A model generated the notes under the pieces. That model did not search any database. It saw only the letters and a program-made list of their open reading frames with translations, and was not told the DNA's origin. A DNA stretch of 64,000 bases from Candidatus Bathyarchaeota archaeon (GTDB taxonomy: Archaea > Thermoproteota > Bathyarchaeia > TCS64). Position numbers and translations under genes: made by a program. Position 1 is the first letter of the stretch, and the number at the start of each line of letters is the position of its first letter. Below are positions 942 to 62,026 of the stretch, piece by piece. The stretch is from positions 1 to 64,000 of the forward strand of contig JBDRQD010000048.1 of NCBI GenBank assembly GCA_043826455.1. The letters run 5' to 3'.

Positions 942-1001
942 TTAGTATTTATTTGTTGTGGTAAAACTAAAATATTTAGGGTAGGGTTCCAATAAACTAC
1001 T

Positions 1002-1475
1002 ATGGAACATGTCGCTATTATGCGCAAATCATTGGGATTTTTAGAAAAAATTTCGGAAGGATCAAAAAAGATAGAATCTCGATGGTATATAACAAAATAT
1101 GCTCCGTGGGGGAAAATTAGAGAAGGGGATGTTATTTATTTTAAAAATTCTGGAGAACCTATTACGATAAAGTCTAATGTCAAACGCGTTGAATTTTATT
1201 CCGACCTTAAACCAGACAAAGCTGAAGAGCTTTTACTAAAATATGGTCCAGAAGATGGAATTGGTATTGAAAATATTGGGGATTTTTATCAATCAGTAAA
1301 AGATAAAAAATATTGTATTCTTGTTTTTCTTTCAAACGTAGAAAATGTTGAACCATTTGAAATAGATAAATCAGGTTTTGGTGCTATGAGTTCCTGGATA
1401 TCTGTGAAAGATGTGAATTCGATCAAAAAGGGGTCAGATACTTTAATTAAACAAACGCAGATTCTTGAATATTAA
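1002..1475 (+). CDS. ASCH (PUA-like) domain protein
   Basis: GSKKIESR (GxKxxExR) followed by GDVIYF, the ASCH signature. Confidence 0.75.
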   Translation: MEHVAIMRKSLGFLEKISEGSKKIESRWYITKYAPWGKIREGDVIYFKNSGEPITIKSNVKRVEFYSDLKPDKAEELLLKYGPEDGIGIENIGDFYQSVKDKKYCILVFLSNVENVEPFEIDKSGFGAMSSWISVKDVNSIKKGSDTLIKQTQILEY

Positions 1476-2458: not shown

Positions 2459-3051
2459 TTTTGAAACTCCTTTTTTCTTGTTTCTAAAATAATGTGATCT
2501 AAATAATCATGTTCTACAAGTTTAGATTCTACTTTTAAAATCATTTCATCTATCGTATTAGATCCATCAAGCACAAAATCTGACTTTTCTTTTAATTCAT
2601 TGATTTCTCTTTCAACAAGATGGTTTATAATATTTTTATTAAACTCTGAATATGATATTTTTTGATGATATTTATTAATATATCTTCTGAAAAGTATTTT
2701 TTTATCTACGTCAATAAAGAATATAATATTTTTATCATAATACTTTTCAACTTCTGATAATATACTTAAATGTCTAATACTATCATAAACATGAGTTCGG
2801 GTTTTAGGTTTATTAAATTTGATTACTTTTAGAAGAAATGTACGTGGGTCAGTATTTAAAAATACTTCGTATCCAATTCTCTGAAGATTCTCTCTGTTGC
2901 GAGATTGATTTTGAGCATCGGCAATATTTTTTATATATTTACTGAATGAAATCTCGTCCCACGGATATTTATTAATAAAATGATTACTAAGAGTAGTTTT
3001 ACCTGAACAAATATTTCCTAAGAAAACAACTGCGCCATTCATTAATATCAC
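2455..3051 (-). CDS. P-loop nucleotide/dNMP-kinase-like protein (copy 1)
   Basis: Walker A GNICSGKTT, plus RENLQRIG and YDSIRH motifs typical of dNMP/dephospho-CoA-type kinases. Confidence 0.75.
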   Translation of the reverse strand: MILMNGAVVFLGNICSGKTTLSNHFINKYPWDEISFSKYIKNIADAQNQSRNRENLQRIGYEVFLNTDPRTFLLKVIKFNKPKTRTHVYDSIRHLSILSEVEKYYDKNIIFFIDVDKKILFRRYINKYHQKISYSEFNKNIINHLVEREINELKEKSDFVLDGSNTIDEMILKVESKLVEHDYLDHIILETRKKEFQK

Positions 3052-3222
3052 TGAGAGTTAATAGTAAACAAACTAATATTTTCTTGCCTTAAAATACACG
3101 CTCGCTCGATTTCTTTATTCAATTTCATTTAAAAAAAAATTTTGGGTTTACCGATATTTTTTGAAATGAATATTCATTCACAAACCACATATTTTAAATT
3201 AAAACTTACTGCTGTATGATGT

Positions 3223-4959
3223 ATGAACTCTCAAAATGAATTAGAGTTAATTCATGGCGATACACATATTACTAAATTTAGTCAAGACTGGTTTGGTTTT
3301 TCTTCTCATGCAAAAAAATTAGTAAACGAAATCAGTGTCATCGCTATAGATTCCTGCATTTGTTGCGGAGTTATTGGAGAGTGGGGAACTGGTAAATCAA
3401 GTTTTATGAAATTAATGTCAAATTATATTCATGATGACTTTGATTCGAATAATTTAGTAATATGGTATATCGCTTGGGATCCATACGGACTATCGAATAT
3501 GGGAGATGCAATCTTATTCCATATTTTTAAAACTGTAGCTAACTATTCGGACCAAAATCCATCTGAATATTCCGAAACAATTAAAAAAGAATTTATAAAA
3601 TTTCAAGAAGCCTTAGGAATCCGAAAAGGACTTAGAAGTTCAGTGCAAAAAATTTTTAAAACGTTGTCTGCATCAGAGACCGCTCCTGGTTTACTTAAAG
3701 ATGTAGCTACAATTGGAGAAAAAACTATATCAGAAATGCAAAGCGCAACTGTTATTAGAAGTACTTTAGAAACGTTGAACGAGTATCTAAATAATAAGAA
3801 TATTTTTTTATATCTATTTATTGATGAACTTGATAGATCTACTGGAGACCAAATATTTAGTATCTTTTCAGAATTGAAGGCCTATTTATCTCATAACAGA
3901 ATAGCGATCATTCTTGGGTATTCAGAGTCATATGTTATTGAAGCAATTAAAAATGAGCTTCCTGAAGAAATTGATGCAAATCAATTTATTGATAAGATAA
4001 TTACTCTCAGAAAAAATATTCCTTTACCCGATCTAACAAGTCTAAAGAATATTGCATATAAATACTTACAAAAATACCCCATTATATCTGATTATCTTGA
4101 TGAATTATCAGAATACGCTGCTAATTTATGTGATTGGAATCCTAGACGTTTAAAAAGGATCCTTCTGTCCTTTATCCAACATTTGCCAGCTAAAGATATT
4201 GGGGAAAATAATTTTATTTGTTTATTAATAATGACAGCATTAGACGAATCAGGATTATTAAAATATCGAGAATTTAATTCAGCAATTATTAATAACGACA
4301 TTGATGTATTACTATCAAATCTTAAAAGTCTTTCAGATTCGAAGTTAGAAGATGAAGCAAAATGTATTTGTGAAGCTATAGAAAAGCTTAATTTAACATC
4401 CCGATTTTCCACTGTTTCTGTACAGAATCTCGGATTGCCTATTTTTAAATCAACAATAATAAAGAAAATGGTTACTGAATATGATCAATCGAAAAAATAT
4501 AATTGGAAACCTCAGATTTTTAAAATATTTTCAGTCCTGAAAAAACAAGGATTAGTAATATCCTCAGATTTTTTTGTTGGAGATGATGAACTTTGTATAA
4601 AGAATGCAGAAAACACTGAAATTAAAAAAGACATTATTAGGCAAATATCAATCTTTAGAAGTGATATTACGTACTATACAACTTCAGATTATGATTTATA
4701 TATATTATTCACTGAACAAATTACCAGAATCGTAGCAGAAATTTATTCGTTTATAAGTAAAATACCATACATTGTAAAAAAGATGCCAGTAATTTTGTGG
4801 ATAATTGATGATGGAGATTGCATTAAACAGATTGATATTGAAGATATCAGACAAACATTAAATGATATAAATAAAGGACTTAAAAATCCTGTTAAAATAA
4901 TATATACAAATTATGATCAAATTGATTCATTGATTGATTATCTTTTCACACATTTTTAA
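3223..4959 (+). CDS. KAP-family P-loop NTPase with uncharacterised C-terminal domain
   Basis: GEWGTGKSS, FIDELDR and NPRRLKR motifs; FIDKII segment. Confidence 0.85.
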   Translation: MNSQNELELIHGDTHITKFSQDWFGFSSHAKKLVNEISVIAIDSCICCGVIGEWGTGKSSFMKLMSNYIHDDFDSNNLVIWYIAWDPYGLSNMGDAILFHIFKTVANYSDQNPSEYSETIKKEFIKFQEALGIRKGLRSSVQKIFKTLSASETAPGLLKDVATIGEKTISEMQSATVIRSTLETLNEYLNNKNIFLYLFIDELDRSTGDQIFSIFSELKAYLSHNRIAIILGYSESYVIEAIKNELPEEIDANQFIDKIITLRKNIPLPDLTSLKNIAYKYLQKYPIISDYLDELSEYAANLCDWNPRRLKRILLSFIQHLPAKDIGENNFICLLIMTALDESGLLKYREFNSAIINNDIDVLLSNLKSLSDSKLEDEAKCICEAIEKLNLTSRFSTVSVQNLGLPIFKSTIIKKMVTEYDQSKKYNWKPQIFKIFSVLKKQGLVISSDFFVGDDELCIKNAENTEIKKDIIRQISIFRSDITYYTTSDYDLYILFTEQITRIVAEIYSFISKIPYIVKKMPVILWIIDDGDCIKQIDIEDIRQTLNDINKGLKNPVKIIYTNYDQIDSLIDYLFTHF

Positions 4960-5023
4960 ATTTATTTTGATTATTTTATATGTTATAGATTAATAGTATA
5001 AGTCATAGGTTTTTTTTAAATGA

Positions 5024-6259
5024 TCAAGAAAGCATATCATTAAGATATGACAATGCTTCATCTATATGTTGTTGAGTATTTTTCATTAATTTTAAGGGTA
5101 TATTTTTTTTAGAAAGAATCAATAATGCATGTAAAAAGGACGATTTTCCCTCAATTTTATAAACTCTATTATCTGAAATCCATAAATCAACAACAGACCT
5201 TTTATCATATTTTCTACTAACAGATGATAATACGTCGTTTTTCTCAATACGAATTAATTTAGGCCTCACATTATAATCATCAAATGGTCCTTTTATCATA
5301 ATCTTATGTTTTTTATGGTAAAAATCATGCCATTCATTTTTTTCGTTGTTTTTAACTATAGAATTCATGATTTGATTTATCTTTTCATTTTTTACTTGTT
5401 TATATTTTATCATTTTTACTAAATCAGCAGTTCTCCAATCTTTTATAAGATTTATTCCAGCACTTTTTAATGATGATTTTTCAAAATCTGGTGTTTTATA
5501 ATTTATAACATTTTTTTCAATGGATTCTAATGAAAAACCTAGTAATTGAGATACTTCAATTATTCTATTTCGCTCTGAATATGCTTCTGGTCTTGTATTC
5601 AACGAATATAATGTGGATTCAAGAGTTGAACCTATATTAGTTACCAATGAAGCTTGACATAAAAATGCAATATAATGTTCAAGATACCAAGGTGCGTCAA
5701 AAAAAACTTTTTCAATTTTTCTTGTAGAATTCCATTTATCTTGAAGTAGATTTTTTCTGTAAACTGATACATTAGATGATGTAACATTTTTTTTGAAAAA
5801 ATCTATTACTGAACGATTATTGTCAATCAAGATAACATTTGGGGTTGGTTCGTAAAGTAACAATTCAGCTAGTATTGACGGCGCTCCAAGTAATAATATT
5901 ACGTCTGTTTCAGAAATGTCCGCTAAAATATTTTTTGATATTGAAGATATTGTAGATTCTGTAAATCTCCAATCAAAATCATACAGATGTGGTTTAGGTA
6001 AAATTAATTTCTTATGATTAATGCTTCGGATATAATTCGTATTCTTTTTCTTTTCTATAAGTGTATATTTACTGTTACTTAACCTAATTATTTTTCCATC
6101 ATTTTCTAATTTATGTAATATTTGTTTTAAATCCAAAGGATATAATCCATAACATTTTTTGAAAATGGCTTCGAACGATGCACATTTTTTTGAAAGAAAT
6201 TTAATTATTGTTTTTTCAATTAAATCGTATTGAGAATAATTTATTTTATCATTAATCAA
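5024..6259 (-). CDS. Class I SAM-dependent methyltransferase-like protein (amino-MTase DPPW-like motif) with possible N-terminal wHTH
   Basis: LLLGAPS (motif I-like), VILID, FFDAPWY (DPPY/W-like motif IV); ATGA-coupled to the upstream kinase. Confidence 0.6.
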   Translation of the reverse strand: MINDKINYSQYDLIEKTIIKFLSKKCASFEAIFKKCYGLYPLDLKQILHKLENDGKIIRLSNSKYTLIEKKKNTNYIRSINHKKLILPKPHLYDFDWRFTESTISSISKNILADISETDVILLLGAPSILAELLLYEPTPNVILIDNNRSVIDFFKKNVTSSNVSVYRKNLLQDKWNSTRKIEKVFFDAPWYLEHYIAFLCQASLVTNIGSTLESTLYSLNTRPEAYSERNRIIEVSQLLGFSLESIEKNVINYKTPDFEKSSLKSAGINLIKDWRTADLVKMIKYKQVKNEKINQIMNSIVKNNEKNEWHDFYHKKHKIMIKGPFDDYNVRPKLIRIEKNDVLSSVSRKYDKRSVVDLWISDNRVYKIEGKSSFLHALLILSKKNIPLKLMKNTQQHIDEALSYLNDMLS

Positions 6260-6798
6260 AGATATTTCTCCTTTTTTAAAATTAGTTTAACTTTATTAAT
6301 AATTTCTTTAATTTGCAGAGTTTCATCTATTTGATGATCAGAATATGCTAATAAGCGAAGAATATCTTTTTCTACAGGATGGTTATTTATTTCTTTAAAT
6401 TGATCGAATGTTTTACCGTCGTTATATTTTTTAACATATCGTTCATATCTCTTACATTCAGACAAATTAAGATAAAATGAAGTTGTTTTTGAATAATAAT
6501 TTTTAACTTCAAATAACAAATCTGGATGTCTTATACTATCATAAATGTGAACATCAGAACTTGGATTATGGTAATCAATAACATTTTTTAAAAAAACATA
6601 GCATGAATATTTATTATAAAGATCATAACCAATATCTTGTAAGGATTTTCTACTCTTGGAAGATTTATTTTTATCCGCAATATGACTGATGTAATCACCA
6701 AAAGAGATTCTATCCCACCCATACTCATTACACAAATGCTTGGCAAGAGTTGTTTTACCGGCACAAATAAGTCCGTTGAATACAATTGCCTTTATCAA
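6256..6798 (-). CDS. P-loop nucleotide/dNMP-kinase-like protein (copy 2)
   Basis: GLICAGKTT, RKSLQDIG, YDSIRH; clear paralog of 2455-3051. Confidence 0.75.
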   Translation of the reverse strand: MIKAIVFNGLICAGKTTLAKHLCNEYGWDRISFGDYISHIADKNKSSKSRKSLQDIGYDLYNKYSCYVFLKNVIDYHNPSSDVHIYDSIRHPDLLFEVKNYYSKTTSFYLNLSECKRYERYVKKYNDGKTFDQFKEINNHPVEKDILRLLAYSDHQIDETLQIKEIINKVKLILKKEKYL

Positions 6799-7072
6799 TT
6801 ATTATCTCTTATTCTTATACACTATTTTTTTTTTAAATCTTTGTTTTTTTACTATGGGGAGTGTTCTAAAAACCTTAAACAATACTTGACGCATTTAACG
6901 GAAACGCACGATAAACGGTTGAAAAGGCTAAGCTAGCGGACATCCCCTAAGCAAATTATCGACCATACCCATAACAGCAGGTAAAATATATTGGGGAGAG
7001 GTGGAACGAAGAAGCCGTGTTATCCATCCCAATTCCTGACCCGTTATATCTACCTTAAACCTCGTTTTAATC

Positions 7073-49205: not shown

Positions 49206-49868
49206 TCACCGCCAGACCTTGATGCCGCGCTCGTGGAGGTACTGGGCGGCCAGGTCCGCGATGTCTGGGCCCTTGAAGGGTATCTTCAGCTCCCTCACCT
49301 GGAGCATGATGTCCCTGTAGTTGATCTCCAGGGGTATACCCTTCTCGGCGAACTCGTCAAGGATGGTCTGGGCTACTTCCTCGGCCACCCTGAACTTGGG
49401 GCTCAGCATCCTGTAGTGGTGCTTCAGGGCGGTGCTGACCTCCTCCGGGGTGGCGCTGTCTATGGCCCACACCGTTGGCCGGGGGCCACCCTTGCTGCGC
49501 TTCACCTTGCTCACCTTCAGGGCGGGCACCACGACCCCCATGGCGCGGAGTCTCTTCAGGGCCCTGTATACGGTGGCCTCGGGCATGTTGAGCTCGCACT
49601 GGAGAACCCAGGCAGTGCTCGCGCCGTGGAGGCAGAAGTACAGGAACGCCTCGCTGACCGCGCTGCTGCTGAAGATCTTCTCGCTGAAGCTCATGAGCTC
49701 CTGGATATTCTTCAGGGTCGTGGCCAGGTCGTTCTTCTCGTTTAAGAGTAACAATTTCCGGAAAACATCTACATATTTGGCGAAGTTCGCCTCTCTCCCG
49801 CTGGGTACTCGGACCGAGCGTTTTTTATTCTTGGAGAGTGTCTTATCTAGGGCTACCGTGTTTGACAC
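49206..49868 (-). CDS. Winged-HTH DNA-binding protein
   Basis: LNMPEATVYRALKRL HTH and GGPRPTVW wing. Confidence 0.75.
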   Translation of the reverse strand: MSNTVALDKTLSKNKKRSVRVPSGREANFAKYVDVFRKLLLLNEKNDLATTLKNIQELMSFSEKIFSSSAVSEAFLYFCLHGASTAWVLQCELNMPEATVYRALKRLRAMGVVVPALKVSKVKRSKGGPRPTVWAIDSATPEEVSTALKHHYRMLSPKFRVAEEVAQTILDEFAEKGIPLEINYRDIMLQVRELKIPFKGPDIADLAAQYLHERGIKVWR

Positions 49869-49934
49869 TTACATCTAACTCCGGACTCCCCACCCGGGGC
49901 TAAAATGTAAACAGCCCCGATAAGTTTATAAGTA

Positions 49935-49988
49935 TACTTGTTAACAAGTAAACAAGTTAACAAATAAACAGGTGCAACAGTAAACATG
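49935..49988. promoter_or_regulatory. 8-bp tandem array (TWAACARG-like) with a 16-bp palindrome in a divergent promoter
   Basis: TTAACAAG TAAACAAG TTAACAAA TAAACAGG TGCAACAG TAAACATG; TACTTGTTAACAAGTA at 49935-49950. Confidence 0.75.
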
Positions 49989-50429
49989 CCGCGTAAAACC
50001 GTCGCAATAAGGGGCCTGAACACGGATTTGTACAACGAGGTCTTCTCCATGGCCAAGAAGGACGGTAAGAACGTGGCCGACGTCGTCAACAACGCCCTCG
50101 AGGCCTTCATAAACGGTGAGGGTGATGACCCCGACGCCACCGTCAGCCTTGGTCAAGCATCTAACTCCGGACCAGAATTTGTATTGACCATCGACGACGA
50201 CGGCGAGGTGAGCCTTTCTAAGGAGGACATCAAGGAGATCGCCTCCGAGATGGGTCCCTTCGCCATCGAGAGCAACGGTAGCCTGGTTTTTGAGAAGGAC
50301 GTCGACAAGAACGCATTGCAGTGCATCAGCAGAATCACTGTGAAGTCGGGGACCGTCAAGGTCCCCAAGTCGGCCTACGCCCAATTCCTAATAAAGACCA
50401 AGATCCAAGGAAAACTCGACAAGTATTGA
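49986..50429 (+). CDS. Ribbon-helix-helix protein with C-terminal beta-rich domain
   Basis: KTVAIRGLNTDLYNEVFSMAKKDGKNVADVVNNAL fits a beta-helix-helix pattern. Confidence 0.7.
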   Translation: MPRKTVAIRGLNTDLYNEVFSMAKKDGKNVADVVNNALEAFINGEGDDPDATVSLGQASNSGPEFVLTIDDDGEVSLSKEDIKEIASEMGPFAIESNGSLVFEKDVDKNALQCISRITVKSGTVKVPKSAYAQFLIKTKIQGKLDKY

Positions 50430-51025
50430 GACCCCATTATACGGTAGCGGGGGTCGAAGACGGCAGCTTCGAGGCTTTCCGCAGGGGCTCAGCGGATGCT
50501 GGCCAGTACACCTTACTTTGTTTAACAGTGATGCGGGGCTCTGTTATACAGGATGTGCGGCTCCGCAGGATACTTGTGGATGGGCTGGACGCCACGGATG
50601 CTTTGTTAAACATGTTATCGGGGCTGGATGTGGACGCCATCATTCTTGGAGGCGTCACCTTCGGGGGCTTCAACGTGGCAGATGTTGAACAAATACACCG
50701 CGCAACAGACACCCCTATAATAGTTTTCAGCACGGAGCGCCCCGACGTGGAGGCAACCCTTGGCGCTCTCAGTAAACATTTCAGTGACTGGCGTGAGCGG
50801 TGGAGGCGCTACGAGGCCCTGGGCCCGCTCCACAGTTTGAGGATGGGCGACTGGCCTGAAGTGTTCTACGAGGCTGTGGGTTGTTCAGCGGAGCTGGCCG
50901 AGAAGATCATTAGAGACCAAGCCTTAACCTCCAGGACCCCTGAGGCGCTCCGTGTGGCTAATATGGTTGCAAAGGGTCTCAGTTTAGTCGTTCAAGGTCT
51001 AGAGGTATGTGCTGATGGGTCATGA
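50426..51025 (+). CDS. DUF99 (EndoV-like) family protein
   Basis: AGVEDG, VDGLDATD, GVTFGGFNV, PEALRVA; TTG start overlapping the RHH stop. Confidence 0.85.
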   Translation: MRPHYTVAGVEDGSFEAFRRGSADAGQYTLLCLTVMRGSVIQDVRLRRILVDGLDATDALLNMLSGLDVDAIILGGVTFGGFNVADVEQIHRATDTPIIVFSTERPDVEATLGALSKHFSDWRERWRRYEALGPLHSLRMGDWPEVFYEAVGCSAELAEKIIRDQALTSRTPEALRVANMVAKGLSLVVQGLEVCADGS

Positions 51026-52445
51026 GGTTATAGACGGAGATGACCCCGGGCGTAGGCTCCAGCTTCATGCGCTTCTGGAAGGGCGTCTGGTCCTGGAAGC
51101 TGCCTGAGCAGATGAGGGATAAGCCGTGGTACTTCCTCATCTCGTGGATGTGGATGTGGCCGCAGACAACCACGTCAGGTATGGTGTCTACCACCAGGCG
51201 GTCCACCTTCTCGGGGGCTATGGGCGTGCTCTGCCCGTAGATGGGGGCGACGTGGCGGCACCTCATGAGGAGCTCCAGGCCTTTCACCGGGCTGTGGAAG
51301 TCGTAGCCCGGGGTGGAGCTCAGTATATCGTCCAGGGCTTTGCCGTGGAAGATGAGAGCCTTGACTCCGTGGAGGCTCAGGTTGCACGGGTTTGGCAGCA
51401 GGTGTATCCTAGGGTCCTTGTATAGGGCTGGGGCGTACTTTTCGGGGATGGGGGGCTGGGGTAGGCTGCGCCTCACGGCGTCGTGGTTCCCCGGTATGAC
51501 GAGTATCTCTACGTGCTCAGGAAGCTGGGACAAGAGCCGGGCGGCCTCCTCGTACTGGGCCTTCTGGGTGGTGATGGTGAGCTCGTCCAGCTGCTCAGGG
51601 TAGATGCCTATGCCGTCCACCAGGTCACCTGTAACTACCAGGTACTTCACTAAGCCGGCCAGCTCCCTGCTGGCCGGTGGCCCCAGGTCCCTGTTCATCC
51701 ACTTGATGAACTTGTCGAAGAGGTCGGCCCGGAAGTACTTGCTGCCCACGTGGATGTCTCCCACGAATACGGCGCACACGTTCTCATCGGCCCGGCTTAT
51801 GTCGTGCATGGGGACGTCGGGCCATATGAGGTCGTTGGCTATGATGAGGTCGTCCCTGTACTTGAGGCCGTCCACGCATATGATCTGGTCGTCCAGGATC
51901 TCCAGGCCTTTCCTGGAGACCTCCTCCCCTGACACCATGACGGTGACGCTGGTGTCAGGGTCCTCCAGGTCCAGGAATAGGCGGCTGCTCCTTGTGCTCT
52001 TGCCAGCCACCAGGCCGATGGTCTTGAACTTGGTTTTCACAGGCTGCTTCACGGCCTGGCTGAGGGGGATGGCGTCCCTGACATCGAACCTGTTCTTGAG
52101 TATGGCCTCCAGCTGTCTGAACCTGCTGTTGAAGTAGTCGATGAAGCCGTTCACGTCCCCCACAGGCTGGGACTCCCTGCCTGAGAGAAGCTCTATCCTC
52201 GACTGGAGCCGGGCTACTGGGGGTTTCATTGCTGGACGGGTCTGCTTGTGCTCCTCGAGGCCTCGCAGGAACTCCTCGTCTATTATGAATAGGTCTGGCC
52301 GAGTCTCAGCCGCTTCCAAGGCTCTCCTGATCACCTTGTCCAGCCTTTCGGCGGGCATGGACTGTAGGAGGTTGAAGGCCTCCGGGGTCAGCTGTAAACC
52401 GACCTCTATGATCTTGTTGATGACTGGTTGGAGTTCCTGTGTCAA
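50979..52445 (-). CDS. polB: DNA polymerase D small (proofreading) subunit DP1
   Basis: OB fold followed by DIHVGS, GDLVDGIGIYP, PGNHD, HVAPIYG, GHIH. Confidence 0.95.
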   Translation of the reverse strand: MTQELQPVINKIIEVGLQLTPEAFNLLQSMPAERLDKVIRRALEAAETRPDLFIIDEEFLRGLEEHKQTRPAMKPPVARLQSRIELLSGRESQPVGDVNGFIDYFNSRFRQLEAILKNRFDVRDAIPLSQAVKQPVKTKFKTIGLVAGKSTRSSRLFLDLEDPDTSVTVMVSGEEVSRKGLEILDDQIICVDGLKYRDDLIIANDLIWPDVPMHDISRADENVCAVFVGDIHVGSKYFRADLFDKFIKWMNRDLGPPASRELAGLVKYLVVTGDLVDGIGIYPEQLDELTITTQKAQYEEAARLLSQLPEHVEILVIPGNHDAVRRSLPQPPIPEKYAPALYKDPRIHLLPNPCNLSLHGVKALIFHGKALDDILSSTPGYDFHSPVKGLELLMRCRHVAPIYGQSTPIAPEKVDRLVVDTIPDVVVCGHIHIHEMRKYHGLSLICSGSFQDQTPFQKRMKLEPTPGVISVYNLMTHQHIPLDLERLN

Positions 52446-52454
52446 CCTTGTTCC

Positions 52455-52796
52455 TTATCTCACCTTGATGACGTAGTCGGTCCTGGGTGGGGCGAAGGTC
52501 TCTATGATGACGGCGGGCTCCTTGCCCGTGGTCTCAAACTTGTGCTCCTCGTTGGGCTGGAGGAACCAAGCTGCCCCAGGCTTGGCCTTCACCTTCCGGG
52601 CTCGGGTGCTTAGCTCCCCAGCCCCCGATAGGAGGGTGCCCATCTGCTCGTGGGGGTGGCTGTGCCAGTCCACCACGGCTCCTGGCTGGATGACTATGTA
52701 GCACTGGGTGGCGTGCATGCCGTTTCCTATTACGCTTATCTTTACTCCGGGTACGGGTTCGAAGCTCGGGGCTTTCTCCCATGTCGTGTCCTGCAT
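52455..52796 (-). CDS. Cupin domain protein
   Basis: WHSHPHEQ, PNEEH, FAPPR. Confidence 0.88.
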   Translation of the reverse strand: MQDTTWEKAPSFEPVPGVKISVIGNGMHATQCYIVIQPGAVVDWHSHPHEQMGTLLSGAGELSTRARKVKAKPGAAWFLQPNEEHKFETTGKEPAVIIETFAPPRTDYVIKVR

Positions 52797-52832
52797 GGGC
52801 AGAGAATAGGTGGCGAGGGTATATGAATTAAG

Positions 52833-53531
52833 CTAGAGGCCTATGGTTGCCTCTCTTTTCTCCAGGAGGAGGTCCTTGATCTCCTTTCTCACGGCGTACC
52901 TGTAAGGCATGCTGTTGGTGTTGCGGTCTATGAAGCCGCTGTCGTAGAGCTTCTTGAGGAGCCTGGCCGTGTGCTCCCGGGTCTTGTTGATCTTGTCCCT
53001 GATCTCGGGGACGGAGCCCTCATCTAGGTCCATGATCATCTGGAGGACCTCCAGCTCCGTGTCGGTGAGCCTCTGGAAGATGTCCTCTCCCTGAACGGGG
53101 ATGGGGGCGTCCACTGGGGTGGCGGCGGGGGCAGCGGCTCTCGGTAGGGACGCTAGCTTCTGGAGTTCGCCCCGCATCTTCTCGATGCTGCCCTCTATGT
53201 TTTCGACTCTGCCTGAGAGCTCCTTCACCTTCTCCAGCTCTTGGAGGGCGGCCTCGCTTGTTCCTTGCCCGGCCTTCAGGGCCTCAGCGGCCATGTACTT
53301 GGCCTGGATGGCGTCGCCCTCAATTTTTTGGAGGCCTGACTCCATCTTCTTCACCTGGCGGGTGAACCCGGAGGTGATGTTCATTACTGACTCCTTGCTG
53401 CCCTCGTACTCGGCCTGAGCCATTTTGATGCGCTTGTAGAATATGTAGCTGGCCACTATGGTCACCGTGAACAGCGCTATGGTTGTGAAAACCAGCTCCA
53501 ATTCTTTCCCCATGATAGTTGTGACAGTCAC
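52833..53531 (-). CDS. TM - coiled-coil - winged-HTH protein
   Basis: N-terminal TM helix, long heptad-like region, Ala/Pro linker, LTDTELEVL...TREHTARLLKKLYDSGFIDR...PYRY. Confidence 0.8.
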   Translation of the reverse strand: MTVTTIMGKELELVFTTIALFTVTIVASYIFYKRIKMAQAEYEGSKESVMNITSGFTRQVKKMESGLQKIEGDAIQAKYMAAEALKAGQGTSEAALQELEKVKELSGRVENIEGSIEKMRGELQKLASLPRAAAPAATPVDAPIPVQGEDIFQRLTDTELEVLQMIMDLDEGSVPEIRDKINKTREHTARLLKKLYDSGFIDRNTNSMPYRYAVRKEIKDLLLEKREATIGL

Positions 53532-53611
53532 CCCTTTTTACCGTTTCGTATCAGAAGATGATTCTATGTTAATATTCGAAATGATCTTTTCATAGGACAA
53601 TCGTAGTGATA

Positions 53612-53628
53612 GTAAACGATTCGTTTAC
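53612..53628. promoter_or_regulatory. Palindrome GTAAACGA-T-TCGTTTAC in a divergent promoter
   Basis: Perfect 8-bp inverted repeat between the TM-wHTH gene and hypF. Confidence 0.45.
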
Positions 53629-53689
53629 CTGGCTCCGAGCTTGTTGCCCATAGTTTAAATTACGCTGTTCATCATAGACGTGAATACCG

Positions 53690-56014
53690 TTGAGTTCTGG
53701 CGGAAAGGTTGAGGCGAAGGTAAGCATCACGGGCAGGGTCCAGGGGGTAGGCTTCAGGCCCTTCATCTACAGGATGGCCGCCAGGAACGGGCTCAGGGGA
53801 TACGTGATTAACCTTGGGGACGCTGGGGTTGAGGCCGTCGTGGAGGGCACAGAGCCCCAGGTTAAAAGGTTCCTCGACGATGTCAGAGAGAGCGCCCCAG
53901 AGGTCTCCGAGATCGAGGACATCTCGTACGAGCTCAAGCCCTATAGGGGCAGGTTCAAGGGTTTCCGGATCGATAAGAGCCAGAACCGCGGAAAAGTCGC
54001 CTCAGGCATTTTTCCGCCGGACATAGGCATTTGCCCCCAATGCCTCGCCGACATGGCTACTCCTAGGGGTCGGTGGTACGATTACCCTTTCACCGCCTGC
54101 GCCTGGTGCGGGCCTAGGTTCACGGGCGTCAACGCCCTGCCCTACGACAGGGAGAGGACTCACATGCACGGGTTCCCCATGTGCAGCGACTGCCACGGAG
54201 ACTACTATGATCCCATGGACAGGCGGTTCGACGCCCAGGGCATGACCTGCAGCCAGTGCGGGCCCACCATGAGCCTTCACGACAGCGAAGGGAGACTGCT
54301 TGAGACGGAGGACATCTTCACTGAGACAGCTAAACTTCTGCTGGAAGGTAGCATCGTCGCCGTGAAGGGCATCGGCGGCGTACACCTCGCCTCGCTTGCC
54401 ACCCGAGACGACATCATCGAGGAGTTCAGGAGGCGTAAACGCCGTCCCTACCAGCCCTTCGCCTTGATGTCACCCAGCCTCGATGACGTTGAGATTTATT
54501 CGGAGTTCACATCAGATGAGAGAAGGTTCCTGGTGTCTTGGCGTAAACCCATCGTTTTGCTGAAGAAGAGGTTTAAGGTCATCTCGGAGCTGGTTGCCCC
54601 GGGCCTGGACAGGGTGGGCGTGATGCTCCCCTACACGGGGATCCAGACCATGCTCTTCAGACGGCTGAGTGAGCCGGCCCTGATAATGACCAGCGGAAAC
54701 AAGCCTGGACTGCCCATGGCAATAACAAACGAGGCCGCGTTCAAGGAGCTGGGTGGCCTGGCGGACTATTTTCTGCTTCACAACAGGGACATCGTCAACA
54801 GGAGTGATGACTCCGTTCTCAGAGTTATCAGGGGTCATCCGTCATTTACTAGGCGCTCCAGGGGCTACGTTCCTGACCCGATTGATATTCCTTTCAAGAA
54901 GGGCACATGTATCGCATTGGGGGCGGAGCTCAGGAACGCGGCGGCTGTGGCCACCAATGGCAAGGTCTTCATGACCCAGTATCTCGGAGACACCGTTAAC
55001 CTTGAGGGCTTGGAGTTCGAGAAGCATGCCCTGCACATCATGTGTGACCTGCTAAATATCACACGTAACCCGGATGTGATTGGCTGTGACCTGCACCCAG
55101 AGTATATGACATCACAGTACGCTCAAGTGATATCACAGGAGATAGGTGTTGAAGCCGTGAGGTCACAACACCATCACGCCCATATAGCCTCAGTTATGGC
55201 GGAAAACATGGTTCCAGCGGAGGAAGAGGTACTGGGTATCGCTTTGGATGGCGCGGGATACGGCCAAGATACGCAAATTTGGGGCGGAGAGGTACTAAAA
55301 TCAACATACTCGGGCTTCGAGAGGCTCGGACAACTAGAATACCTACCCATGCCCGGAGGAGATCAATGCGCCTATTATCCCTACAGGATGCTTGTGGCCG
55401 GCCTCACAAACATTGTCACAGATGATATTATACGTGATATCACAGAAAATCACGTCGAAAATGCGTTACCTCACGGTAAAAAAGAGCTGGAACTGATACT
55501 CAGACAGTCAAGAAAATTGGATGTGCTTAAAACTTCAGGGGCTGGGCGATTCCTGGATGCTGTGGCTTCTCTCCTTGATCTAACATATTACAGGACTTAT
55601 GAAGGCGAACCCGCTATGCGATTGGAGGCTTTAATCTCAAGGAATGTATCCGATACTTTACATTTCGAGCCCGAAATATCCGTTATAGATGAAGAATATA
55701 TCCTTAAAACATCAAATATACTCTATAATTATTTAATAAATAAAAATAGTCACAAATATGCCGATATTGCTTATTCTGCCCATAAATATTTGGCAGAAGG
55801 AATGAGCAACATAGTAATCTCTGCCTCAGAGGCAACTGGCATAAAAAAAGTCGCACTGTCTGGTGGAGTCTTGATCAACGAATTCATCGCAGAGACCATA
55901 CATCGAACTCTTTCAACCACCGGATTAGAGGTAATGTTCAATCGTAAAGTCCCTCCAGGTGACGGTGGGACAGCTCTTGGCCAGTGCTGTGTAGCCCTTT
56001 CATCTGTGATATGA
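53690..56014 (+). CDS. hypF: Carbamoyltransferase HypF
   Basis: Acylphosphatase GRVQGVGFRPF, Zn fingers, KGIGG, DLHP, QHHHAH, DGAGYG, PPGDGG..LGQ. Confidence 0.96.
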   Translation: MSSGGKVEAKVSITGRVQGVGFRPFIYRMAARNGLRGYVINLGDAGVEAVVEGTEPQVKRFLDDVRESAPEVSEIEDISYELKPYRGRFKGFRIDKSQNRGKVASGIFPPDIGICPQCLADMATPRGRWYDYPFTACAWCGPRFTGVNALPYDRERTHMHGFPMCSDCHGDYYDPMDRRFDAQGMTCSQCGPTMSLHDSEGRLLETEDIFTETAKLLLEGSIVAVKGIGGVHLASLATRDDIIEEFRRRKRRPYQPFALMSPSLDDVEIYSEFTSDERRFLVSWRKPIVLLKKRFKVISELVAPGLDRVGVMLPYTGIQTMLFRRLSEPALIMTSGNKPGLPMAITNEAAFKELGGLADYFLLHNRDIVNRSDDSVLRVIRGHPSFTRRSRGYVPDPIDIPFKKGTCIALGAELRNAAAVATNGKVFMTQYLGDTVNLEGLEFEKHALHIMCDLLNITRNPDVIGCDLHPEYMTSQYAQVISQEIGVEAVRSQHHHAHIASVMAENMVPAEEEVLGIALDGAGYGQDTQIWGGEVLKSTYSGFERLGQLEYLPMPGGDQCAYYPYRMLVAGLTNIVTDDIIRDITENHVENALPHGKKELELILRQSRKLDVLKTSGAGRFLDAVASLLDLTYYRTYEGEPAMRLEALISRNVSDTLHFEPEISVIDEEYILKTSNILYNYLINKNSHKYADIAYSAHKYLAEGMSNIVISASEATGIKKVALSGGVLINEFIAETIHRTLSTTGLEVMFNRKVPPGDGGTALGQCCVALSSVI

Positions 56015-57038
56015 TGTGATATCACACCATTTTGATGCTAGTGGGAGAACCTAAACGTGATATTCCCTCCACCAGTTCTGTCTCAATCTGTTTCAGAAGA
56101 TCCTTTGAAGCGTTTAACTCTCTGCTCTCCAGCATGATAACGTATTCTTTTAATTTTTCAGCTAAAAAATAATAGTCGTCGAAGGGCCTGGCCTCAAACA
56201 CACCGATATAACTCAACAAAACAATGGTAAAGATGCTTGAGATAACGTTACCACGAGCCTGAGCTAACGAGCGGCTAAATGAGCCCCTACTTACTTTTTT
56301 ACGTCTAAAATATGCTTTTTGATGAAAAGGGATTTTTTTATCTGATATTATGTCAGTTAGTAAATCAATTACAAGCGATTCAAATTGTACTCTTGTTAAA
56401 TTACTGTTTTTAAGTAATAGGTCTGATATCGGGTCCTGAAACGTTTTTTGGATAATATTTTGGTAATTCTCTGACGCCAATCTAGGCTCGCCTCACAGTG
56501 ATATCACATTAACGAGATATAACGTTGTCTACAAAATCGTATACCAATGAGCGTGGTCTTGTATTGAAAGTGATTGCCTTCTACAACACTAAAACTTTAC
56601 GTTTTGATGCAATATACATGTAAATAGATTAATAATATTTATATAAAAATGTAAATGGGCTGGATGGAAGTCTTTATTATCACTTAATTCAAGTCATCTA
56701 AACATGGTCACGGTCAAAGATCTAGAGATAAACTGCGAGAAAATTGAGCCAAAAATCAAAGAATTCATAGCTGACAACATTAAAAATGCAGGCCTAAAAG
56801 GAGCAGTCGTGGCTGTCAGCGGAGGAATAGACTCAGCCGTAGCCCTTTCACTGACAGTTAAGGCACTAGGCCCCGAGAAGGTCACAACTGTCACACTTCC
56901 AGACCGTGATGCGACACCTAAGCGTGATATCATGGATGTGATGCAACACTGTGAGAGCCTCGGCGTCACATGTAACACGGTGGATATCACGCCAATATTA
57001 CATGTGATACGTGATACGCTACCCCTCTATGACATCAC
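55056..57038. repeat. Cluster of GTGATATCAC palindromes
   Basis: Exact copies at 55127, 55434, 56016 and 56498; near copies at 55106, 55157, 56006, 56924, 56981 and 57029. Confidence 0.85.
56022..56480 (-). CDS. Uncharacterised protein (152 aa), possible HTH DNA-binding
   Basis: LT..Q...RKKVSRGSFSRSLAQARGN recognition-helix-like segment; fills the gap between hypF and nadE. Confidence 0.7.
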   Translation of the reverse strand: MASENYQNIIQKTFQDPISDLLLKNSNLTRVQFESLVIDLLTDIISDKKIPFHQKAYFRRKKVSRGSFSRSLAQARGNVISSIFTIVLLSYIGVFEARPFDDYYFLAEKLKEYVIMLESRELNASKDLLKQIETELVEGISRLGSPTSIKMV

Positions 57039-57498
57039 AGACAGAATATCCAGCGGCAACATCAAATCCAGGCTCAGGATGATAGCGGCCTACCACTTCG
57101 CCAACAGGCTGAACCGGATGGTGATAGGCACCTCCAACAAGACCGAGCTCATTACAGGGTTCTTCACCAAACACGGCGACGGCGGAGTGGACCTGATGCC
57201 CCTTGCTGACCTCTACAAGACCCAGATAAGGCAGCTGGCCGGGCACCTCAACGTACCAAATGGCATCATCAGGAAGCCTCCGTCACCGGGGTTCTTTCCG
57301 GGGCAGACGGACGAAGGCGAACTGGGGATAGACTACACGACGCTGGACCTGATCCTCTTCAGCTTGGAGAAGGGTATGAGCGCCCAGATGATAGCAGAGG
57401 ATCTGAAAATTGAAGTTGATCAAGTTGAGGCTGTTCTGAGACGAATAAAAGCAAACGAACATAAACGGCGGCTTCCACTACTCTTAAGACTAACCTAG
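56704..57498 (+). CDS. nadE: NH3-dependent NAD+ synthetase
   Basis: SGGIDS, GNIKSRLRM, GTSNKTE, TKHGDG, EHKR. Confidence 0.95.
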   Translation: MVTVKDLEINCEKIEPKIKEFIADNIKNAGLKGAVVAVSGGIDSAVALSLTVKALGPEKVTTVTLPDRDATPKRDIMDVMQHCESLGVTCNTVDITPILHVIRDTLPLYDITDRISSGNIKSRLRMIAAYHFANRLNRMVIGTSNKTELITGFFTKHGDGGVDLMPLADLYKTQIRQLAGHLNVPNGIIRKPPSPGFFPGQTDEGELGIDYTTLDLILFSLEKGMSAQMIAEDLKIEVDQVEAVLRRIKANEHKRRLPLLLRLT

Positions 57499-57526
57499 AG
57501 GACTCCTAACCAACAGAGGGAGCAAG

Positions 57527-57775
57527 ATGGGACGAAAAAGACAGAAAGTAGTCAAAATAATAAAGAGGAGACTGCCAGACCAGTACCTATGCCCCAACTG
57601 CGGCATGAACACGGTTGGCATCATAATTCACCCGAGCGAAGGCCTGGCCAGGATCATCTGCAGCAGCTGCTCCCTCAAGAACCAGTTCCCGGTCCCGGAG
57701 AACACCGACCCCGTAGACGCCTACTGTATCTTCGTGGACAAGTTCTACGGCGTTGAGGAGCCTCCGAAGCAATGA
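57527..57775 (+). CDS. elf1: Transcription elongation factor Elf1
   Basis: MGRKR..., CPNC, CSSC, PVDAYC.FVD. Confidence 0.85.
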   Translation: MGRKRQKVVKIIKRRLPDQYLCPNCGMNTVGIIIHPSEGLARIICSSCSLKNQFPVPENTDPVDAYCIFVDKFYGVEEPPKQ

Positions 57776-58600: not shown

Positions 58601-61600
58601 TTGATTGAAGTCCAGATGCCCCCGGCCTACAAGACGTACTTCAAAGAGTTAGAGGACAAGCTCAACAGCCTGTACGAGGTGGCGGAGGAGGCCCGGCTGA
58701 AAGGCCTGGACGCCGCCCTAAAGCCTGAGCCGGCGATAACCACGGACATCGCGGACCGGATCGAGAAGCTCATCGGTCCGCCGGGCATCACTCAGAGGAT
58801 GCGGGAGCTGGAGGGCATGGACCGCCAGGAGATGAGCTTCAAGATAGCCCAAGAGATAACGCTGGGCAGGTTCGGCTCCATGGAGCGGGAGAGAGCCGCG
58901 GACCAGGCCATCAGGACGGCCCTCGCCATCATGACCGAGGGAGTCACCATAGCCCCCATAGAGGGCATACCCAAGATCGTCATCAAACAGAACCCGGACC
59001 GCTCCGAGTATCTCAGCGTCTACTTCGCTGGCCCCATCAGGCCCGCCGGAGGAACCGCCCAGGCCCTCACCCTGGTCATCGCCGACGTCGTGCGGCGCTC
59101 CCTGGGGCTAGAAAAGTACCAGCCCAGCGAGGACGTCGTCAACAGGTTCATCGAGGAGGTTCGCATCTACGAGCGCAGCGTCAGACGGTTCCAGTACCAC
59201 GTCACCGACGAGGACCTGGAACTAGCCATGAAGCACATCCCCGTCGAGGCCACCGGCGTCTCCACCGACCCCTACGAGGCCTCTAACTACAGGGACGTCC
59301 CAGGAATCGAGACCAACAGGCTCAGGGGCGGCGCCCTTATAGTGGTCGTCGACGGCGTGGTCGGCCGCGCCCGCAAGCTCTGCGGTGTATGCGAGACCAT
59401 AGGCATAGATGGCTGGGACTGGCTCAACAAGCTGGGTAGGAAGAAGCCCAGCAACGGCGAGGAGGAGACCAGGAAGCCCACCGCGGCCTTCATGGAGGAG
59501 ATAATCGTGGGCCGCCCCGTGTTCAGCTTCCCCAACACCCCCGGCGGCTTCCGGCTCAGGTACGGCAGAGCCCGTACCACGGGGCTGGCCGCCTGCGGAG
59601 TCCACCCGGCCACCATGATCACCCTCAACGGCTTCATGACCACCGGCCTGCAGCTGAGGATAGAGCTGCCCGGCAAGTCAGCGGCCGTGTGCCCCGTGGA
59701 CACCATCGAGCCGCCCGTCGTACGCCTCAAGGACGGTAGCGTGGTGCGCGTGGACGACGAGGAGACGGCCCGCAGGGTCTACGACAGGGTTGACCGGATA
59801 CTGTTTAACGGCGATGTCCTCATCAACGCCGGGGACTTCATCCAGTTCAACCACCCGCTGCTGCCAGCCGGCTACGACGAGGATCAGTGGCGGTACGACA
59901 TTGAATTCGCCCTCGAGGCGCTCGGAGAGAAGCCTGTCGAGGAACTCACAGGGATCAGCGAGGAACGGATTCGTGGACTCCTGGGTGATTCCTCCGAGGC
60001 GCCGACGCCTGAGGAGGCCCTAGCCCTCACCAAGATAGATGCGCCCCTCCACCCCCGCTACACCTATGACTGGTCCAAGGTACCCATGCAGCGGCTGCTG
60101 AGCCTCAGGAACATGTTAGCCGAGGACTGGGGCGCCCCAGAGATAAAGCTGAGCCCTGAGGACAAGGAGGCCCTCGAGATTCTTCTGGTGCCCCACAAGA
60201 CGGAAAATGGCGGGGTGGTTCTGGAGGGGGCCGCCCCCATCCTTGAACGCTGCCTGGCCCTGGGCTCGAAGTACGTGGAGGCAAAGGAGGCTGAGCCCCT
60301 CGCCCAGGTGAACACATGGGCCGGCTTCAGGGTCATGGAGAAGGCCTACGTCTACGTGGGGGCCCGCATGGGCCGCCCCGAGAAAGCCAAGGAGAGGAAG
60401 ATGAACCCCTACGTCCACGGCCTGTTCCCCGTGGGCAACGCGGGTGGCCCCCAGAGGGACATCACCAGGGCCAGGCGCGGGGAGAAGGTCAGGGTCGAAC
60501 TGGCGCAGAGGGAGTGCCCAACGTGCGGCTACTACTCTACCACGCCGCTGTGCGAGAACTGCGGAGGCCTCACCAGGGTCACCAAGAAGTGCCCCCGGTG
60601 CAGGAGGCCCGTGGAGGGTGACAGGTGCCCAGCCTGCAACGTTGAACCCGTGATGTATGAGACGTTGGAGCTGGACCTCCGCGAGGAGCTGGAGAAGGCA
60701 CGCAGGCACGTAGGTGGCAGCATCCCTGACAGGATCAAGTGCGTCAAGAGGCTGATGAACAAGGCCAGGATGCCGGAGCACCTGGGCAAGGCCATACTCA
60801 GGGCCCGGTACGACCTCAGCGTGTTCAAGGACGGCACCCTACGGTACGACCTCACGGACATACCACTGACCCACTTCAAGCCCTCCGAGGTGGGGGTCCC
60901 AGTGGATAGGCTGCGTGAGCTGGGGTACACCCACGACGTGGACGGAGAACCCCTGACCCGGGGCAGCCAGATGCTGGAGCTTATGGTCCAGGACGTGGTT
61001 CTGCCCGAGGACTGTGGCGACTACCTGGTCAAGGCAGCCAGGTTCCTGGACGACGAGCTGCGCGACTTCTACAAGTTGGAGCCCTACTACAAGGTGGAGA
61101 ACAGGAACCAGCTGGTGGGCCACATAATTGTCGGGTTGGCGCCTCACACCTCCGCCTCCATAGTGGGCCGCCTCATAGGTTGGAGCAAGGTGAGGAACTG
61201 CTACGCCCACCCCTACTGGCACGCGGCCAAGCGCAGGAACTGCGACGGCGACGAGGACGCCGTGCTTTTAGCCCTGGACCCGCTGCTCAACTTCTCCAAG
61301 GCCTATCTCCCCGAGCAGAGTGGCGGCCTCATGGATGCGCCCCTATTCATAATACCCAACCTGAACCCCGAGGAGGTGGACAAGGAGAGCCACAACATGG
61401 ACGTCGTGGGCAGGTACCCGCCCGAGTTCTACGACATGACCATGAGGAGGGCCAAGCCGGGCGACTTCGAGGGACTGGTGGACACCCTGGGCGGCAGGCT
61501 GGGCACCCAGGCCCAGTACGCGGGCTTCAGCTACACCAAGGAGTGCAGCGACATCAACCTCGGAAGCCACCTCGGCGCCTACACCACCCTGCAGACTATG

Positions 61601-62026
61601 CTGGACAAGCTGGATAGCCAGCTGGACCTCACCAGGAAGCTGCGAGCCGTGGACGGCCAGACCGTAGCCCTGAAGATACTGAACAGCCACTTCATGAAGG
61701 ACATTGTCGGTAACCTCCGCGCCTTCACACGCCAGGGCTTCAGGTGCAGCAAATGCAACAAGAAGTTCAGGAGGCCCCCGCTGAAGGGCGGCTGCGACAG
61801 GTGCGGAGGCAACATAATCATGACGGTGCACAGGGGCGGGATAGAGAAGTACCTGGACCCCGCCGCCAAGATAGTGGACAAGTACAACCTGGGGGACTAC
61901 TACAGCGACAGGTTAGAGCTGGTGAGGGAGGAGCTGGACAGCATCTTCGTGGACGAGAAGCCCAAGGAGGATGAGCCCACCCAGTTTAACCTCACCGACT
62001 TCATGAGGCCCAAGGAGAAGAGGTAA
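58601..62026 (+). CDS. polC: DNA polymerase D large subunit DP2
   Basis: YFAGPIRPAGGT, GFRLRYGRAR, KDGTLRYD, HAAKRRNCDGDED, C-terminal Zn finger; no intein seen. Confidence 0.98.
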   Translation: MIEVQMPPAYKTYFKELEDKLNSLYEVAEEARLKGLDAALKPEPAITTDIADRIEKLIGPPGITQRMRELEGMDRQEMSFKIAQEITLGRFGSMERERAADQAIRTALAIMTEGVTIAPIEGIPKIVIKQNPDRSEYLSVYFAGPIRPAGGTAQALTLVIADVVRRSLGLEKYQPSEDVVNRFIEEVRIYERSVRRFQYHVTDEDLELAMKHIPVEATGVSTDPYEASNYRDVPGIETNRLRGGALIVVVDGVVGRARKLCGVCETIGIDGWDWLNKLGRKKPSNGEEETRKPTAAFMEEIIVGRPVFSFPNTPGGFRLRYGRARTTGLAACGVHPATMITLNGFMTTGLQLRIELPGKSAAVCPVDTIEPPVVRLKDGSVVRVDDEETARRVYDRVDRILFNGDVLINAGDFIQFNHPLLPAGYDEDQWRYDIEFALEALGEKPVEELTGISEERIRGLLGDSSEAPTPEEALALTKIDAPLHPRYTYDWSKVPMQRLLSLRNMLAEDWGAPEIKLSPEDKEALEILLVPHKTENGGVVLEGAAPILERCLALGSKYVEAKEAEPLAQVNTWAGFRVMEKAYVYVGARMGRPEKAKERKMNPYVHGLFPVGNAGGPQRDITRARRGEKVRVELAQRECPTCGYYSTTPLCENCGGLTRVTKKCPRCRRPVEGDRCPACNVEPVMYETLELDLREELEKARRHVGGSIPDRIKCVKRLMNKARMPEHLGKAILRARYDLSVFKDGTLRYDLTDIPLTHFKPSEVGVPVDRLRELGYTHDVDGEPLTRGSQMLELMVQDVVLPEDCGDYLVKAARFLDDELRDFYKLEPYYKVENRNQLVGHIIVGLAPHTSASIVGRLIGWSKVRNCYAHPYWHAAKRRNCDGDEDAVLLALDPLLNFSKAYLPEQSGGLMDAPLFIIPNLNPEEVDKESHNMDVVGRYPPEFYDMTMRRAKPGDFEGLVDTLGGRLGTQAQYAGFSYTKECSDINLGSHLGAYTTLQTMLDKLDSQLDLTRKLRAVDGQTVALKILNSHFMKDIVGNLRAFTRQGFRCSKCNKKFRRPPLKGGCDRCGGNIIMTVHRGGIEKYLDPAAKIVDKYNLGDYYSDRLELVREELDSIFVDEKPKEDEPTQFNLTDFMRPKEKR

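Follow-up and report, generated by a model that had tools for sequence, protein, structure and literature searches.

A 64,000-nucleotide stretch of DNA from a Candidatus Bathyarchaeota archaeon (positions 1 to 64,000 of contig JBDRQD010000048.1, assembly GCA_043826455.1; hereafter the window) carries, between the two genes of DNA polymerase D (PolD), a dense cluster of the 10-bp palindrome GTGATATCAC and of its half-sites. Comparative sequence evidence indicates that the cluster is genuine: a binding array, conserved between genomes and confined to one locus, in the PolD (oriC) neighbourhood. Its probable binder, assigned with good comparative support, is a 232-amino-acid (aa) winged-helix protein encoded at the same locus. 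The system would be either a DNA-membrane tether or an operator array of a winged-helix protein, and the archaeal family concerned is undescribed. A membrane tether or centromere-like landmark, analogous to RicO/ricS of Staphylococcus aureus, is the reading we prefer, tentatively and somewhat short of even confidence. The initial annotation had proposed a non-canonical replication origin or a segregation site; the segregation or landmark half of that proposal fits the data best, whereas the origin half is disfavoured.

The genes of the locus are, in order, those for DP1, a cupin, the 232-aa MarR/TrmB-like protein, HypF, a 152-aa protein, NadE, Elf1, PcrB and DP2. The genome (G000) is a 2.95 Mb assembly in 81 contigs. 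It was compared with a phylum sample of 301 Thermoproteota genomes, a class set of 45 genomes and a set of 52 genomes of its own order.

The palindrome array and its conservation

The array occupies the 3′ part of hypF, the region of the 152-aa gene and the first part of nadE, and consists of the following elements.

53690-56014, + strand: hypF, intact, between the winged-helix and 152-aa genes; its 3′ third has the array and a low GC content at third codon positions (GC3)
55127-55136: full palindrome GTGATATCAC in hypF, codons GTG-ATA-TCA; centre of the half-site sub-array 55043-55167
55434-55443: full palindrome in hypF, codons CGT-GAT-ATC-ACA
56016-56025: full palindrome (12-bp form TGTGATATCACA) that overlaps the 152-aa stop; the best conserved of the four
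56481-56703: AT-rich, site-poor divergent intergenic core separating two sub-arrays; GC 0.32, with an equal dip in all three locus groups
56498-56507: full palindrome 18 bp upstream of the 152-aa gene, as had been noted; the least conserved of the four
56704-57498, + strand: nadE, intact; holds the distal sub-array
56881-57039: half-site sub-array in nadE, with a one-mismatch copy at 56924-56933 and two Val codons frozen as GTG

The exact copies of GTGATATCAC at 55127, 55434, 56016 and 56498 were found where they had been reported, and they are four of only five in the whole genome, for which Markov models of order 4 or 5 predict 1.0-1.1. With at most one mismatch allowed, the window holds seven copies versus 1.44±1.23 after shuffling, and none of 100 shuffles reached seven. 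The stretch 55056-57038 also contains eight copies with one or two mismatches. The window-wide count at two mismatches is 25, which is not above chance (21.2±4.7), so that only the local concentration, 12 of the 25 within 2 kb, is informative. The half-sites give the same picture: for each of the five half-site patterns tried, the richest 2-kb window of the genome is that near 55,000. For GTGATR or YATCAC it holds 18 matches, versus eight in the next best window and a mean of 2.0. TGTGAY or RTCACA occurs 21 times in 53400-57600, with 20 of these in 55043-57039. The motif is not evenly spread over the genome, and genome-wide half-site scans find a single array per genome. Within it, half-sites stand as head-to-head pairs at a 5-bp offset and in tandem at 7, 10-11 and 21 bp.

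Conservation extends across the class. Of 30 loci with a 152-aa homologue, 26 have an exact palindrome no more than 1.5 kb from it, two have one-mismatch copies instead and two have none. The class-wide consensus GTGAYRTCAC is found around the 152-aa gene in 28 of 30 loci; the motif recurs in orthologous loci. In most lineages one copy coincides with the 152-aa stop codon or closely follows it. Relative to this stop, the layout is constant in three locus groups (of 18, 6 and 41 loci), with a sub-array near -1000, the site-poor AT-rich core, and sub-arrays from 0 to +1000. In the 18 loci in which hypF separates the two genes, the array keeps its distance to the 152-aa stop and lies within hypF and nadE; in clades without hypF the sites are intergenic.

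The two hypF copies lie in different reading frames, which had been advanced as a sign that they are not codon artefacts, and the codons themselves bear this out. Among 24 hypF sequences, synonymous-codon constancy is 0.96 in the full sites (3 codons, those of 4- or 6-fold amino acids), 0.84 in half-sites (8 codons) and 0.45 elsewhere (259 codons). Frozen codons of this kind point to selection on the DNA sequence itself. Towards its 3′ end the GC3 of hypF drops from about 0.65 to 0.2-0.4. The dip in GC content described earlier is real: the value of 0.39 over 55500-57000 belongs to the lowest 1.4% of 1.5-kb windows, and it falls to 0.32 in 56480-56700 and to 0.26 in 56560-56700, a region that doubles as a divergent promoter region. 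Scans for sigma-70 promoters and terminators gave matches at chance level.

The candidate reader and the 152-aa protein

Two proteins of the locus had been put forward as possible binders, and each now appears to have a palindrome of its own.

52833-53531, - strand: predicted reader, 232 aa; likely start ATG at 53513
56022-56480, - strand: 152-aa conserved all-helical protein with a helix-turn-helix (HTH)-like segment and no Pfam family
56526-56545: second palindrome, single-copy, TGTATACA-N4-TGTATACA, 46-65 bp upstream of the 152-aa gene

The 232-aa protein is predicted to consist of an N-terminal transmembrane (TM) helix (about 53439-53495; hydropathy 2.15), a long helix or coiled coil, a linker and a C-terminal winged helix. 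The N-terminal helix measures about 100-120 residues in the structure model (predicted local distance difference test score 90.9). Pfam places the winged helix near MarR/TrmB, below or near the family cut-offs, and the family alignment shows an invariant REHxxR recognition helix and no sensor domain outside the membrane. No ParB hit was obtained in Pfam, and the winged helix has no sequence match in PDB. In Foldseek, AspA occupies ranks 3, 5 and 10, tied with MarR proteins. A dimer prediction scored 0.02 and was not used as evidence. The family is present in 169 of the 301 phylum genomes and in 39 of the 45 of the class, and its hydrophobic N-terminal stretch occurs in Bathyarchaeia and in several other families.

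The GTGATATCAC array is probably read by the winged helix of this protein. The assignment is made because of a double dissociation, in which the array goes with the winged-helix gene and the second palindrome with the 152-aa gene. The palindrome-less loci of the class genomes G034 and G105 belong to genomes without a detected member of the 232-aa family, and G292 and the f41/f43 loci are alike in this. The median enrichment of TGTGA/TCACA is 1.0 in eight loci that have only the 152-aa gene, 2.4 in 14 that have only the winged-helix gene and 2.65 in 34 that have both; L090, a 152-aa-only locus whose genome carries the winged-helix gene elsewhere, was dropped from this test. In all 14 winged-helix-only loci ATCACA is the top de novo 6-mer, and ATCAC, ATCACA and TATGTGA are among the top words (the f24 proteins were set aside in this analysis of motif and recognition helix). 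Co-occurrence thus supports the earlier nomination of the 52833-53531 protein.

Soluble coiled-coil winged-helix forms were observed at L107-L120, L096 and L122, where they are often convergent with a small winged-helix gene. These loci are often near boxes that resemble origin recognition boxes (ORBs), yet have no cdc6 within 6 kb.

The 152-aa protein, the other nominee, is probably not the reader, as the loci that have it alone lack the array and it has its own palindrome elsewhere. Its family is found in 124 of the 301 phylum genomes and in 43 of the 45 of the class, and none of its 361 representatives has a name. Foldseek gave no match at E 0.001, and Pfam and PDB profile searches were blank; in VIA-align the best Z of 7.0 covers the C-terminal hairpin only, and one LuxR-type HTH row reaches Z 5.7. 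No profile likeness was detected between this family and the winged-helix family.

The second palindrome was found by aligning the intergenic core, and lies 28-68 bp upstream of the 152-aa gene across loci. With a matrix seeded from 23 of 107 upstream regions, some loci repeating a genome, it beats all 30 shuffles in 94 of the 107. These include all seven loci that lack the winged-helix gene; the palindrome fails in the six f20 loci. In this genome 56526-56545 is its best genome-wide match. This site would be the operator of the 152-aa protein, which is probably autoregulated through it. The half-sites of the GTGATATCAC type avoid the same promoter (0.15-0.56 per locus).

A neighbourhood that has lost its usual origin

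The array is bounded by the PolD genes, and on its DP1 side adjoins an interval that differs between orders.

50979-52445, - strand: DP1, small subunit of PolD, left landmark (domain search)
52446-52832: interval with only the cupin gene (52455-52796); its counterpart in other orders contains orc1-1, ORBs and a small winged-helix gene
58601-62026, + strand: DP2, large subunit of PolD, right landmark (domain search)

In other orders the interval between DP1 and the gene of the candidate reader holds the small winged-helix gene, ORBs and orc1-1: among 44 such loci a cdc6 gene (orc1-1) lies within 6 kb in 38 and an ORB in 39, most misses being short contigs. The origin-side gene order is common to families f20, f24, f30, f31 and f37, of which f20 was judged Nitrosopumilus-like from its gene content and from Nitrososphaerota clusters. 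Conversely, none of these elements is present in the 36 loci nearest to the protein of the window, 34 of which reach DP1. No ORB and no cdc6 occur at the locus studied here, in agreement with the first reading of the sequence.

Where both elements are present, they are distinct. In G191, ORBs are placed at 114-115 kb and the array at 119-121 kb, which makes array and origin neighbours and not one element. The proposal of an origin at the array fits this arrangement poorly: in related orders the genuine ORB origin stands apart from the array by a few kb.

When the 52 genomes of the order were searched with Orc1-1, the best identity was 28-34% in 50, no match was obtained in one, and a value of 47% was seen in G349; orthologues of other orders reach 55-81%. 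An orc1-1 orthologue was accordingly not found in 51 of the 52. The strict ORB pattern occurs in three of the 52, one match each, no more than in the reversed control. By these genome searches, the order has lost orc1-1 and its ORBs; the small winged-helix gene beside the origin is lost as well. The present genome has one Cdc6, which groups with the second paralogue in a tree (in which the L105 row, a mis-picked clamp-loader-like open reading frame (ORF), was ignored and L212 has no row). The only Orc1-1-like match in the order, at 455-1654 of contig C37 in G349, has one stop inside the match and represents either contamination or late retention.

Strand bias at four-fold sites was examined per gene, as raw cumulative GC skew and gene orientation were uninformative in G341 and G000. 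In G191, which bears orc1-1, the bias switches at the locus (purine z -10.6, which none of 300 block permutations reached; 385 genes sampled over 520 kb). In G341, a single-contig genome of the family studied here, no switch was found anywhere (best |z| 1.8; 918 genes from 1.16 Mb), the genomes being half or quarter sampled. The comparison sets one closed genome against another of different GC content, with possible misjoins. The large contigs of the present genome are also flat, with purine z of 0.0 (212 genes) and -2.3 (236 genes); an effect like that of G191 would give about 6.6 for 150 genes. A skew turn at the array, which an origin there would predict, is thus not seen in G341 or in the contigs of G000. 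One fixed origin is therefore disfavoured here; replication that is dispersed or origin-less would agree with the result, and a weak origin is compatible with it.

Several further elements were noticed around the initiator genes. Upstream of the only cdc6 of this genome (C60, 3137-3178) lies a conserved box (CACTTTCACTCACC..TCCAC), shared by L101, L210, L211, L215 and L103; no copy of it occurs at the locus of the array. The CACTTTCACTCACC box precedes the promoter of the second-paralogue cdc6, and in L211 an ORB-like word follows it. Related boxes score high at five other places in the genome (C65, C81, C36, C12 and C72), which suggests a small regulon. Another repeat, TGTTAACA, is found at f20 and f24 loci beside the small winged-helix gene that neighbours the origin (L092, 7652-7920; L093, 4393-4649; L094; L087), and is possibly the site of that protein, for which no Pfam family was found. 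SMC was found in G341, G191, G034 and G105, and a full-length SMC was not found in the present assembly.

Membrane landmark, regulator or origin

The membrane landmark that we tentatively prefer would work as follows. The winged helix, as co-occurrence suggests, would read the TGTGAY half-site. Two half-sites placed head to head make up the palindrome of 10-12 bp; those repeated in tandem at 10-11 or 21 bp would let several protomers line up along the same face of the double helix. Because the protein is predicted to have a single N-terminal TM helix, hardly any part beyond the membrane and a long stalk, it would tether the locus to the membrane whenever the array is occupied, and thus hold a single chromosomal locus there. 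The purpose would most likely be chromosome positioning or segregation by means of a centromere-like anchor that would have arisen beside oriC and been kept in this order after loss of the Orc1-1/ORB origin. A landmark is favoured over a plain operator because the array is single, is held through a 2.3-kb difference in gene order, persists in foreign codons and has a sensorless, apparently membrane-anchored reader.

Bacteria offer partial parallels. In RacA/ram and Noc/NBS of Bacillus subtilis, an HTH protein bound to palindromic sites connects part of the chromosome with the cell envelope. RacA depends on DivIVA, and Noc belongs to the ParB family of CTPases. The 232-aa protein differs from both in its own predicted TM helix and in lacking a ParB domain. 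RicO/ricS is closer. According to the accessible text of the preprint (bioRxiv 10.64898/2026.03.06.710092), its sites lie near the origin and a DNA-membrane bridge is proposed; RicO, as described there, unites a DNA-binding domain, a coiled coil and a membrane anchor in one chain, as is predicted here. The parts are reversed, however, and RicO has an amphipathic helix in place of the TM helix. The present system is archaeal, and homology is not expected.

Among segregation systems, a palindromic site cluster near the origin region is shared with ParABS, SegAB and AspA-ParBA. SegAB and AspA-ParBA also have a dimeric site-specific protein that acts on palindromes near its own gene, much as is proposed here, with the same ambiguity between operator and centromere (PMC5120986, in the portion accessible), and AspA is a winged-helix centromere binder that is among the top fold matches of the 232-aa protein. 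No Walker ATPase is encoded at this locus, however, and neither system has a TM helix or a long stalk. UBP/ucm of Sulfolobales is likewise a non-initiator protein with its own motif at archaeal origins, but in the accessible part of PMC12141716 UBP is described as soluble and 111 aa long, with more than 300 sites, and its ucm motif is placed between the ORBs, whereas here one array is kilobases from the ORBs. Origins of the Orc1-1/ORB type and oriC3/WhiP, as far as PMC4010727 is accessible, share boxes around an AT-rich stretch and a position between PolD genes, and differ in that this order is without ORB, orc1-1 and skew switch. The array system is probably not a member of ParABS, SegAB or AspA-ParBA, and it does not belong to UBP/ucm or to ORB origins.

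Several observations count against a landmark. In most orders half-sites fill the reader's own promoter, as in an autoregulated repressor. No ParA or SegA gene is present at the locus, and none was found near it in five of five genomes; on this contig the closest PF13614 match, at 257860, is 200 kb distant. In RicO/ricS, nine sites are scattered over about 700 kb (per the same preprint text), versus about 20 half-sites in a 2-kb array here. Family members at the 14 winged-helix-only loci, as well as those at L096 and L122, are soluble and have no TM helix, yet half-sites persist. The 232-aa gene was not found in the class genomes G034, G105 and G292. Enrichment of the 5-mer is weak at L033, L036, L081-L085, L087, L121 and L124 despite both genes, although several of these score high by 6-mer count, and the p-values of the enrichment test overstate the effect as kin loci are not independent. 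Finally, at L147 (genome G336) the winged-helix gene adjoins a truncated hypF, the 152-aa gene was not found and there is no array, a state that may be an assembly gap or a real rearrangement of the locus. The same genome has a palindrome pair 18 bp apart at 542457-542484, far from the winged-helix gene.

The strongest competitor, appreciably less probable than the landmark but a serious possibility, keeps the same binder and makes it a transcription regulator. It would be a membrane-bound repressor, with two sub-arrays about 1-2 kb apart that loop out the 152-aa gene and its divergent promoter (and, ancestrally, the promoter of the repressor), and membrane attachment would be incidental or serve regulated release. 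Regulators of the MarR/TrmB/Lrs14 type share the winged-helix fold, and like them the protein has palindromic sites in its own promoter in other orders (mean 6.0 half-sites, 4-9 each, in 41 of 41 loci). Some lineages (L081-L083) have one palindrome just upstream of the two-gene unit, and neighbouring genes each seem to own private boxes. Against this, the protein is near or below the cut-offs of those families and has a predicted TM helix and stalk, and its sites lie inside neighbouring genes. In this clade the sites have left the reader's promoter (mean 0.56 half-sites, 0-2 each, in the 18 loci with hypF between the genes) and are kept by selection within coding sequence 1.5-3.5 kb away. They also avoid the 152-aa promoter, and neither an outside sensor domain nor a regulon is apparent, each genome having one array.

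Two roles in replication are both improbable. A replacement origin, at which the winged-helix (or the 152-aa) protein would act as a WhiP-like initiator around the AT-rich core and so permit the loss of Orc1-1 and ORBs, would account for the boxes that flank the core, for the ancestral oriC neighbourhood from DP1 to DP2 and for the missing orc1-1, and the accessible text of PMC4010727 describes a winged-helix initiator in Sulfolobus. The flat skew of G341 and of the present contigs, set against the switch in G191, is contrary to it, and the same array and core exist in orders with ORBs a few kb off, so nothing new was built. No replication initiator is known to have a TM anchor. An accessory factor of the UBP, SeqA or Fis type, tuning a neighbouring ORB origin and surviving in this order as a relic with a secondary role, deserves as little credence: the linkage to oriC is constant across the phylum sample and UBP/ucm is a precedent, but the sites are kilobases from the ORBs and not between them, and the array is still under selection in this ORB-less order. 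Chance, or a side effect of codon usage, which two copies in coding sequence and an AT-rich patch might suggest, can be dismissed almost entirely, given the different frames, the frozen codons, the intergenic sites in clades without hypF and other AT-rich regions without an array.

A wider view is conceivable, and we regard it as speculative, a little less probable than the landmark reading itself: Bathyarchaeia and Nitrososphaeria would share an undescribed self-anchoring centromere, in which the transmembrane coiled-coil winged-helix protein would fix a single array of the chromosome at the membrane, and in this order centromere and origin would be separate and replication would have no fixed start. 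Archaeal chromosome segregation has been called a black box, with centromeres among the outstanding questions (PMC5120986, accessible portion). Because protein and site are both specified, each has been lost naturally in some lineages and the family is spread over more than half of the phylum sample, the segregation question would be testable in cultured relatives, and the loss of the origin uncouples the array from replication initiation. Order-wide loss of the most conserved archaeal initiator, its boxes and the skew would be a wild counterpart of origin-less laboratory strains. In the literature searched, outside which subscription papers, Pelve et al. 2013 and supplements fell, no description was found of the motif, of the 232-aa family or of the orc1-1 loss in Bathyarchaeia; the accessible part of PMC4104785 contains nothing on this locus.

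Three minor observations concern the surroundings. In this order a conserved trio adjoins DP1 (49206-51025 of the window), comprising a TrmB-like winged-helix gene, a 147-aa gene whose product has an N-terminus that is ribbon-helix-helix-like by eye, and endonuclease dU. Contigs L127, L154 and L156 carry a locus of the Bathyarchaeia type while being filed as bacterial genomes, and are probably mis-binned. At the contig start, positions 1-7000 form a low-GC island (0.22-0.33) that encodes a DUF6932 protein, a radical SAM-like protein, two small P-loop kinases, a KAP-family NTPase and two unknown ORFs; it looks acquired and is perhaps defence-related.

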